Source: Escherichia coli (lineage in GTDB: Bacteria > Pseudomonadota > Gammaproteobacteria > Enterobacterales > Enterobacteriaceae). Taken from it: a stretch of 64,000 nucleotides of DNA. The notes beneath the pieces were generated by a model that worked only from the letters and a program-made list of their open reading frames with translations, was not told where the DNA came from and searched no databases. The position numbers and the translations under genes were made by a program. The DNA is taken from assembly GCF_013122565.1 (NCBI RefSeq), contig NZ_CP053258.1. One strand, written 5' to 3'. How positions within the stretch are numbered: the first letter of the stretch is position 1; the number at the start of each line of letters is the position of its first letter. Shown piece by piece: positions 53,324 to 55,749 of this stretch.

Positions 53324-54001
53324 ATGAAACAGTATTTGATTGCCCCCTCAATTCTGTCGGCTGATTTTGCCCGCCTGGGTGAAGATACCGCAAAAGCCCT
53401 GGCAGCTGGCGCTGATGTCGTGCATTTTGACGTCATGGATAACCACTATGTTCCCAATCTGACGATTGGGCCAATGGTGCTGAAATCCTTGCGTAACTAC
53501 GGCATTACCGCCCCTATTGACGTACACCTGATGGTGAAACCGGTCGATCGCATTGTGCCTGATTTCGCTGCCGCTGGTGCCAGCATCATTACCTTTCATC
53601 CAGAAGCCTCCGAGCATGTTGACCGCACGCTGCAACTGATTAAAGAAAATGGCTGTAAAGCGGGTCTGGTATTTAACCCGGCGACACCGCTGAGCTATCT
53701 GGATTACGTTATGGATAAGCTGGATGTGATCCTGCTGATGTCCGTCAATCCTGGTTTCGGCGGTCAGTCTTTCATTCCGCAAACACTGGATAAACTGCGC
53801 GAAGTACGTCGTCGTATCGACGAGTCTGGCTTTGACATTCGTCTGGAAGTGGACGGTGGCGTGAAGGTGAACAACATTGGCGAAATCGCTGCGGCGGGCG
53901 CGGATATGTTCGTCGCCGGTTCGGCAATCTTCGACCAGCCAGACTACAAAAAAGTCATTGATGAAATGCGCAGTGAACTGGCAAAGGTAAGTCATGAATA
54001 A
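53324..54001 (+). CDS. rpe: ribulose-phosphate 3-epimerase
   Basis: 225 aa. Confidence 0.97.
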
Positions 54002-54752
54002 GTTTGAAGATATTCGCGGCGTCGCTTTTGATCTCGATGGTACGCTGGTGGACAGTGCTCCTGGTCTTGCTGCTGCGGTAGATATGGCGCTGTATGCGCT
54101 GGAATTGCCCGTTGCAGGTGAAGAACGCGTTATTACCTGGATTGGTAACGGCGCAGATGTTCTGATGGAGCGCGCATTGACCTGGGCGCGTCAGGAACGT
54201 GCGACTCTGCGTAAAACAATGGGTAAACCGCCCGTTGATGACGACATTCCGGCAGAAGAACAGGTACGTATTCTGCGTAAACTGTTCGATCGCTACTATG
54301 GCGAGGTTGCCGAAGAGGGGACGTTTTTGTTCCCGCACGTTGCCGATACGTTGGGTGCGTTGCAGGCTAAAGGCCTGCCGCTAGGCCTGGTCACCAACAA
54401 ACCGACGCCGTTCGTCGCGCCGCTGCTCGAAGCCTTAGATATTGCCAAATACTTTAGCGTGGTTATCGGCGGCGATGATGTGCAAAACAAAAAACCGCAT
54501 CCGGACCCGCTGTTACTGGTGGCTGAGCGGATGGGAATTGCCCCACAACAGATGCTGTTTGTCGGCGACTCACGCAATGATATTCAGGCGGCAAAAGCGG
54601 CAGGTTGCCCATCAGTTGGCTTAACCTACGGATATAACTACGGCGAGGCTATCGATCTCAGCCAGCCTGATGTAATTTATCAGTCTATAAATGACCTTCT
54701 GCCCGCATTAGGGCTTCCGCATAGCGAAAATCAGGAATCGAAAAATGACTAA
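53994..54752 (+). CDS. gph: phosphoglycolate phosphatase
   Basis: 252 aa; HAD DLDGTL. Confidence 0.96.
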
Positions 54753-55749
54753 GCCCATCGTTTTTAGTGGCGCACAGCCCTCAGGTGAATTGACCATTGG
54801 TAACTACATGGGTGCGCTGCGTCAGTGGGTAAACATGCAGGATGACTACCATTGCATTTACTGTATCGTTGACCAACACGCGATCACCGTGCGCCAGGAT
54901 GCACAGAAGCTGCGTAAAGCGACGCTGGATACGCTGGCCTTGTATCTGGCTTGTGGTATCGATCCTGAGAAAAGCACCATTTTTGTTCAGTCCCACGTAC
55001 CGGAACATGCGCAGTTAGGCTGGGCACTGAACTGCTATACCTACTTCGGCGAGCTGAGCCGCATGACGCAGTTTAAAGATAAATCTGCGCGTTATGCCGA
55101 GAACATCAACGCTGGTCTGTTTGACTATCCGGTGCTGATGGCTGCGGACATCCTGCTGTATCAAACTAATCTGGTACCGGTGGGTGAAGACCAGAAACAG
55201 CACCTGGAACTGAGCCGCGATATCGCTCAGCGTTTCAACGCGCTGTATGGCGATATCTTTAAGGTGCCGGAGCCGTTTATTCCGAAATCCGGCGCGCGCG
55301 TAATGTCGCTGCTGGAGCCGACCAAGAAGATGTCCAAGTCTGACGATAACCGCAATAACGTTATCGGCCTGCTGGAAGATCCGAAATCGGTAGTGAAGAA
55401 AATCAAACGCGCGGTCACCGACTCCGACGAGCCGCCGGTAGTTCGCTACGATGTGCAGAACAAAGCGGGCGTTTCCAACCTGCTGGATATCCTTTCTGCG
55501 GTAACGGGCCAGAGTATCCCGGAACTGGAAAAACAGTTCGAAGGCAAGATGTATGGTCATCTGAAAGGTGAAGTGGCTGATGCCGTTTCCGGTATGCTGA
55601 CTGAATTGCAGGAACGTTACCACCGTTTCCGCAACGATGAAGCCTTCCTGCAACAGGTGATGAAAGACGGCGCAGAAAAAGCCAGCGCACATGCTTCCCG
55701 TACGCTAAAAGCGGTGTATGAAGCGATTGGTTTTGTGGCGAAGCCGTAA
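54745..55749 (+). CDS. trpS: tryptophan--tRNA ligase
   Basis: 334 aa; KMSKS. Confidence 0.97.

Follow-up and report, generated by a model that had tools for sequence, protein, structure and literature searches.

In Escherichia coli, the genes rpe, gph, and trpS are joined by two consecutive 8-nt overlaps. We consider it probable that these are compact junctions with embedded ribosome-binding sites, at which initiation is mostly independent and coupling to upstream translation is at most partial. Strict coupling from gph to trpS is contradicted by published K-12 ribosome profiling.

Geometry of the rpe-gph-trpS junctions

We analyzed a 64,000-nt stretch of E. coli DNA (hereafter, the window); the genes and signals placed below lie on its + strand. 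Direct reading, together with the listing of open reading frames (ORFs), placed rpe at 53324–54001, gph at 53994–54752, and trpS at 54745–55749. The three genes encode ribulose-phosphate 3-epimerase (225 aa; TIGR01163, 319.6 bits against a cut-off of 212.6; the K-12 annotation is identical), phosphoglycolate phosphatase of the HAD family (252 aa; NF009694, 558 bits, cut-off 415), and tryptophan–tRNA ligase (334 aa; TIGR00233, 391.8 bits, cut-off 176.75). All three proteins scored above their NCBIfam equivalog cut-offs, and the TrpRS of the window matches that of E. coli in PDB 5V0I at 100% identity. The neighboring ORFs encode Dam and DamX upstream and YhfZ downstream. Long antisense ORFs inside rpe and trpS were set aside as shadow ORFs, their reading not being kept open across species.

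The 3′ end of rpe reads ...CAT GAA TAA, and overlap 1 (ATGAATAA, 53994–54001) comprises the gph start codon ATG and the rpe stop codon TAA. Similarly, gph ends with ...AAT GAC TAA at 54752, and overlap 2 (ATGACTAA, 54745–54752) comprises the ATG of trpS and the TAA of gph; the stop codon of trpS is the TAA at 55747–55749. Relative to rpe, gph is read in the +1 frame, as is trpS relative to gph, hence all three frames are used across the three genes. An SD-like AAGGT for gph (53984–53988, positions −10 to −6) lies in the final rpe codons, and an SD-like CAGGA for trpS (54732–54736, positions −13 to −9) lies in the final gph codons. The Shine-Dalgarno sequence of rpe, AAGGAG (53312–53317), was read within the 17-nt dam-rpe spacer and is strong, with a predicted anti-SD duplex energy of −8.5 kcal/mol.

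Downstream of trpS, an intrinsic-terminator-like hairpin with a T7 run occupies 55765–55790, 16 nt past the stop codon. The hairpin itself, AAAAACCGGG-GAAA-CCCGGTTTTT (55765–55788), has a 10-bp stem that includes a 5-bp GC core and is capped by a GAAA loop; the T7 run spans 55784–55790. Its folding energy is −15.1 kcal/mol (z = −3.1 against dinucleotide shuffles), and by sequence and predicted fold it has the G+C-rich hairpin and following U-run of an intrinsic terminator. An automatic consensus terminator scan did not list a hairpin at 55765–55790. Among 70 loci with enough downstream sequence, 61 carry a hairpin and T-run 3′ of trpS, with differing stem sequences. A sequence-only reading of this DNA had named the three genes, put the overlaps at 53994–54001 and 54745–54752, and placed a strong terminator at 55765–55790: the overlaps are exact to the base, the NCBIfam equivalog matches agree with the gene identities, and the fold and T7 run bear out the hairpin.

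Of 5426 complete E. coli genomes, 5425 contain the stretch (95–99% identity), and none in the collection exceeds 98.9% identity over it. It is collinear with K-12 b3391–b3381 (98.7% DNA identity). K-12 has the same genes (rpe b3386, gph b3385, trpS b3384) in the same order and on the same strand, and also shares the hairpin at the end; its RefSeq coordinates (trpS 3512634–3513638, gph 3513631–3514389, rpe 3514382–3515059) give the same 8-nt overlap at either junction. By contrast, K-12 has an ~130 bp REP-like insert between the trpS stop codon and the hairpin, which is missing from the window.

Both junctions have exactly the geometry of the −8 (ATGNNTGA/TAA) class of unidirectional overlaps (Huber et al., 2023; Brown and Wade, 2025), and both pairs belong to this class as real genes with correctly placed starts. 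The −8 class is the third most frequent or enriched spacing class, after −4 and −1 (Huber et al., 2023; Brown and Wade, 2025). Since a single −8 overlap represents a common spacing class, a tandem pair is statistically unremarkable in one genome. Huber et al., 2023 list both pairs as −8 in their supplementary table for E. coli and flag them as ‘CMPLX not’ (PMC10666635). Short overlaps in general are enriched among subunits of heteromeric complexes, whereas rpe-gph and gph-trpS are flagged as non-complex. The overlaps are therefore already annotated and tabulated, and nothing in the arrangement is novel.

Conservation of the overlaps among relatives

Species-representative genomes were scanned with Gph, which returned 80 loci, nearly all from Enterobacteriaceae, with Gph 63–100% identical. 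The 8-nt overlap is kept at each junction in 74 of the 80 species loci. The loci that lacked an overlap call were mostly truncated or frameshifted, although two of these, L015 and L061, have an intact junction sequence. Only the Klebsiella oxytoca group departs clearly from the pattern; in it, a 1-nt deletion leaves the gph TAA, then AAA, then the trpS ATG, that is, a 3-nt spacer. Gph is 249 aa long throughout this clade, matching the change at its gph/trpS junction. 

Motifs and octamers were counted in the 69 species loci that retain both overlaps. Overlap 1 is represented by eight different octamers in these loci, including ATGGATAA, ATGAATAA, ATGAGTAA, ATGATTGA, and ATGACTGA, and the base changes among them include TAA to TGA; the geometry is constant. 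Overlap 2 is ATGACTAA in 67 of the 69 loci and ATGAGTAA in the other two. The SD-like AAGGT of gph and CAGGA of trpS are invariant in all 69. We also measured synonymous diversity by a codon-aware method in 70 sequences (the window and the 69 species loci). Diversity is suppressed over the last ~7 codons of rpe, which carry the gph ribosome-binding site, and over the last ~9 codons of gph, which carry that of trpS; these tails are the only strongly suppressed synonymous stretches in rpe and gph. Conservation thus points to the ribosome-binding sites in the tails of the upstream genes as the constrained feature. Judged by comparison of sequences, the −8 geometry is also conserved and clearly maintained within Enterobacteriaceae.

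A word-indexed protein search returned close relatives only (at least 79% identical). In looking for more distant ones, one representative match (L086/L087) was discarded, being bisulfite-converted E. coli-like DNA with 27% GC in which Gln codons are read as stops. Distant relatives with the dam-rpe-gph-trpS cluster (Gph 46–52% identical) share the order SPOR protein, Dam, Rpe, Gph, TrpRS, but their rpe/gph and gph/trpS junctions measure −4/+1, +3/+79, and −4/+47, compared with −8/−8 in the window. Among the loci examined, the double −8 arrangement occurs only in Enterobacteriaceae and is stable there. A published table of COG pairs has Rpe next to Gph in 245 genomes (median spacing −1; PMC10666635).

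Transcription, translation, and coupling

The seven genes aroK-aroB-damX-dam-rpe-gph-trpS lie in this order on one strand, collinear with K-12 b3390–b3384, in agreement with the earlier assignment of rpe, gph, and trpS to the dam-containing operon. A seven-gene dam operon with promoters within damX is described in PMC4981707, and the K-12 dam-containing operon had been reported earlier (Lyngstadaas et al., 1995, 1999). Literature data on K-12 mRNA levels and on a Salmonella dam mutant place the genes of each pair on one mRNA. The Salmonella dam mutation lowered the rpe, gph, and trpS transcripts 6.6-, 4.4-, and 3.4-fold, respectively, which is the polarity expected of co-transcription; the shrinking of the effect from rpe to trpS hints at some independent downstream input. 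In K-12, rpe and gph mRNA levels are equal (205 vs. 224), which also fits co-transcription, and trpS mRNA is 2.2-fold above that of gph (490 vs. 224; Burkhardt et al., 2017). A promoter scan gave no + strand promoter-like site within rpe or gph, and there is no conserved −10-like hexamer in gph and no conserved internal trpS promoter inside gph. Differential stability, processing, or a weak unconserved promoter are candidate explanations for the higher trpS mRNA.

K-12 ribosome profiling and RNA-seq values for these genes were taken from supplementary file 1 of Burkhardt et al., 2017. From aroK onwards, translation efficiency (with ribosome density and mRNA level in brackets) is 1.005 for aroK (1157, 1152), 0.143 for aroB (88, 617), 0.570 for damX (315, 553), 0.25 for dam (38.5, 154), 1.091 for rpe (223.5, 205), 0.524 for gph (117.3, 223.8), and 1.109 for trpS (543.3, 490). 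Taking ribosome density as initiation rate, which holds only if elongation speed is similar across rpe, gph, and trpS, translation of gph runs at 0.48 times that of rpe, a ratio that partial coupling and independent initiation would both allow. Downstream translation per mRNA thus stays at or below the upstream level from rpe to gph, but not from gph to trpS, the trpS value per mRNA being 2.1-fold that of gph. Re-initiation after gph therefore cannot be the source of most TrpRS: assuming similar elongation speed in the three ORFs, it accounts for at most 47% of trpS initiations per mRNA, and for at most 22% by total ribosome density should the surplus trpS mRNA not carry gph. Any split between de novo and coupled initiation is inferred from these values.

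The sequence-only reading had taken the overlaps to indicate translational coupling within the operon and had proposed ribosome profiling or operon maps as the check. The K-12 data fit the operon and speak against lock-step translation of rpe, gph, and trpS. The coupling reading is only partly supported: the overlaps stand but do not by themselves demonstrate coupling, and lock-step translation from gph to trpS does not survive the efficiencies of the two genes (0.524 vs. 1.109).

Published work is divided on how overlap should be read. Burkhardt et al., 2017 found that relative translation varies as much in overlapping as in non-overlapping pairs. Saito et al., 2020 reported that RRF depletion alters neither reporter coupling nor the downstream/upstream ratios of ribosome density, overlapping pairs included, and concluded that the mechanism in E. 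coli is mainly something other than re-initiation. Huber et al., on the other hand, found the native overlapping pairs of E. coli that they tested to be strictly coupled, and class spacings from −8 to +6 as predictive of termination-reinitiation, while noting −8 to be less efficient than −4 or −1. A 2025 review states that coupling efficiency drops once the overlap exceeds −4 (Brown and Wade, 2025). Genome-wide studies thus disagree on whether overlap implies coupling in E. coli. The well-known pairs trpB-trpA and galT-galK resemble rpe-gph-trpS in being same-strand operon neighbors in which the ribosome-binding site of the second gene lies within the first or directly adjoins it. They differ in that their dependence on upstream translation has been measured (1.7- to 7-fold), while rpe, gph, and trpS are known by their unequal ribosome densities; the literature searched yielded no direct coupling experiment on the rpe/gph or gph/trpS junction.

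We favor the following course of events. rpe, gph, and trpS are the last three genes of the long-known aroK-aroB-damX-dam-rpe-gph-trpS operon, so tightly packed that the SD-like motif and ATG of gph and of trpS are embedded in the final codons of the gene before, whence the two ATGNNTAA (−8) overlaps. Both gph and trpS would be translated chiefly from their own SD and ATG, each at a gene-specific rate. A ribosome that finishes the upstream gene would stop 5 nt beyond the next ATG, and it may keep the site open or occasionally re-initiate. Such an upstream contribution is possible from rpe to gph and would be a minority one from gph to trpS. Transcription would end at the hairpin and T-run past trpS.

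It is also conceivable, though in our judgment unlikely, that the overlaps reflect nothing but compaction: a by-product of stop-codon drift that persists since any change would alter protein ends or the embedded SD, with upstream translation leaving downstream initiation unaffected. In vivo DMS Gini values over −20 to +40 are low for all three genes (rpe 0.296, gph 0.299, trpS 0.303), which means open start regions (Burkhardt et al., 2017). The junction RNAs fold no better than shuffled sequence (z = −0.42 and +0.67), hence there would be little for an upstream ribosome to melt. This openness, the unequal translation efficiencies of rpe, gph, and trpS, the loss of the −8 spacing outside Enterobacteriaceae, and the general finding that overlapping pairs have no tighter translation ratios than others are all as compaction would have it. 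Nevertheless, the geometry at overlap 1 is kept while its bases change freely, stop codon included, and a terminating ribosome would cover the next SD and ATG, which would make an interaction, positive or negative, hard to avoid. Moreover, the coupling ratios at the known pairs (1.7- to 7-fold) are modest but real.

Obligate termination-reinitiation, in which ribosomes that end rpe would slide back 5 nt to gph, and likewise from gph to trpS, such that downstream translation depends on upstream translation, appears quite improbable to us. The −8 spacing does lie within the −8 to +6 window of Huber et al., whose tested native pairs were strictly coupled, the overlaps are conserved across the bacterial family, and a gph efficiency about half that of rpe is what re-initiation at ~50% efficiency would give. 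The same arithmetic fails at the next junction, where trpS (1.109) exceeds gph (0.524) and re-initiation is bounded at 47% per mRNA or 22% by ribosome density. The spacing argument is weakened by the lower reported efficiency of −8 relative to −4 or −1, and that from conservation by the 3-nt gph/trpS spacer of the Klebsiella oxytoca group and the +47 and +79 spacings in more distant relatives. In addition, both pairs are marked as non-complex, with no obvious need for a fixed stoichiometry.

Start codons and the 5′ end of trpS

The use of alternative start codons further downstream, which the sequence-only reading had named as the observation that would refute it, is ruled out by sequence, no such codon being compatible with the catalytic motif in Gph or with the core of TrpRS. 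The gph frame has a TAA stop codon (53988–53990) one codon 5′ of its ATG, and the canonical start that comes next, GTG at codon 19, lies past the HAD motif DLDGT (residues 13–17) with its catalytic aspartate. In the trpS frame, there is no ATG, GTG, or TTG between the in-frame stop (54709) and the annotated ATG. Codons 16 (TTG) and 22 (ATG) are the next candidates, and a start at either would cost the protein its first strand, or the strand together with the TIGN signature. The N-termini of related loci align at residue 1 on an ATG in every relative and are conserved in at least 74 species loci, full-length NCBIfam models match the proteins from residues 1–3 on, and TrpRS orthologues with solved structures begin within a few residues of the annotated trpS start. 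Start codons are often mis-annotated in general, but given the in-frame stop and the catalytic motif of gph, the parts of TrpRS that a later start would remove, the conserved N-termini, the NCBIfam matches, and the solved structures, the chance that the overlaps are annotation artefacts, with the real gph or trpS start further downstream and the genes not overlapping, is negligible.

Separately, we observed that synonymous variation is strongly suppressed over the first 14–28 codons of trpS, despite their non-preferred codons. The segment of codons 1–28 (54745–54828) has the lowest synonymous diversity of the three genes. A hairpin that would pair the trpS AUG (AAAAAUGA with UCGUUUUU) was rejected, since changes in Kluyvera break the pairing and do not compensate. 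A candidate structure over trpS +9 to +86 was 99% paired but no better than shuffles (414/500), and the folding energy of the region (z = −0.42) lent it no support. Neither covariation nor folding energy supported a candidate structure in this 5′ segment, and Rfam gave a chance-level match alone. It is a long shot that the opening ~28 codons of trpS make up a hitherto undescribed RNA element acting in cis, such as a translational operator, a processing or stabilizing site, or an sRNA target. If it were true, this element could be what determines the raised mRNA level and translation efficiency of trpS without involvement of gph, and the −8 overlap would do no more than fix where it lies.

The locus provides a clean example, conserved across the family, of two −8 overlaps in a row between genes whose products are not partners in a complex, and the ribosome-profiling numbers at rpe-gph-trpS indicate that overlap does not equal lock-step translation. 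It may offer a convenient natural test case in the debate on re-initiation versus independent initiation at overlapping genes, in which the +3 spacer of the Klebsiella oxytoca group would serve as a built-in control.

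Synonymous-site conservation at the start of trpS

We compared the window with 69 species loci of the Enterobacteriaceae that retain both 8-nt overlaps, and noted that synonymous-site diversity across rpe, gph and trpS in these 70 sequences is lowest over 54745-54828, which corresponds to trpS codons 1-28. The 772 sliding 14-codon windows had a median value of 0.62, and those over these codons gave 0.17-0.27. Runs of at least 9 nt with identity of at least 90% occur only at 54745-54761, 54769-54779 and 54781-54789, and the conserved codons include the non-preferred CCC, AGT and TCA. 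A candidate structure spanning trpS +9 to +86 was 99% paired and yet did not rise above shuffled sequences, and the folding z-score of the trpS 5' region was -0.42.

A separate short G+C hairpin, GCCCG-loop-CGGGC, lies within the final gph codons (54701-54714), 31-44 nt 5' of the trpS start codon. An alignment of 28 species shows this hairpin retained, with a single compensatory change; in the window itself, the inner pair is a G-A mismatch.

Promoter-like, terminator and antisense features

Inside damX on the + strand, approximately 350 nt 5' of dam, is the site TTGAAA-18 nt-TACACT (52094-52123); it is promoter-like by sequence and in line with the published dam promoters within damX. At the other end of the operon, a clear hairpin followed by a T-run (55765-55790) was confirmed by folding; a consensus terminator scan did not pick it up. 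In the K-12 locus (L001, 2340-2660), a REP/BIME-like palindromic insert of ~130 bp separates the trpS stop from the terminator hairpin. By contrast, the window (55750-55764) has no such insert, and its hairpin therefore begins 16 nt past the trpS stop.

Two open reading frames on the - strand, one of 215 aa in rpe (53348-53995) and one of 225 aa in trpS (55015-55692), were rejected as genes. Over 69 species, the longest stop-free run ranged from 76 to 226 codons antisense to rpe and from 105 to 322 codons antisense to trpS, and because of this variation in length we regard both as shadow ORFs.

Strain relatedness and converted contigs

Among the 5425 complete E. coli genomes with a match, the best identity over this housekeeping stretch (53200-55900 and 47371-58000) did not exceed 98.9%; K-12 and the window are 98.7% identical. 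At the protein level, Gph shares 100% identity with its counterpart in Escherichia sp. MOD1-EC7003, but at the DNA level the identity is only 96%. The source strain thus has no close representative in the complete E. coli genome collection.

A search for distant relatives also returned an E. coli-like dam-rpe-gph-trpS region of 27% GC in two Logan assemblies, SRR27475582 (L086, 2501-2992) and SRR6447715 (L087). Here Gln codons read as stops, Pro as Leu/Phe and Ala as Val. With this GC content and these codon changes, we rejected a native locus in favor of bisulfite-converted DNA assembled as native, a public-collection artefact that gives rise to spurious protein clusters.

A gph/trpS junction variant in the Klebsiella oxytoca complex

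In Klebsiella oxytoca, K. michiganensis and K. grimontii (L023, L027 and L036), a 1-nt deletion has abolished the 8-nt gph/trpS overlap and cuts Gph to 249 aa. The junction now reads TAA-AAA-ATG, that is, a 3-nt spacer, and this variant appears to be fixed throughout the K. oxytoca complex, which provides a natural control for what the gph/trpS overlap does.
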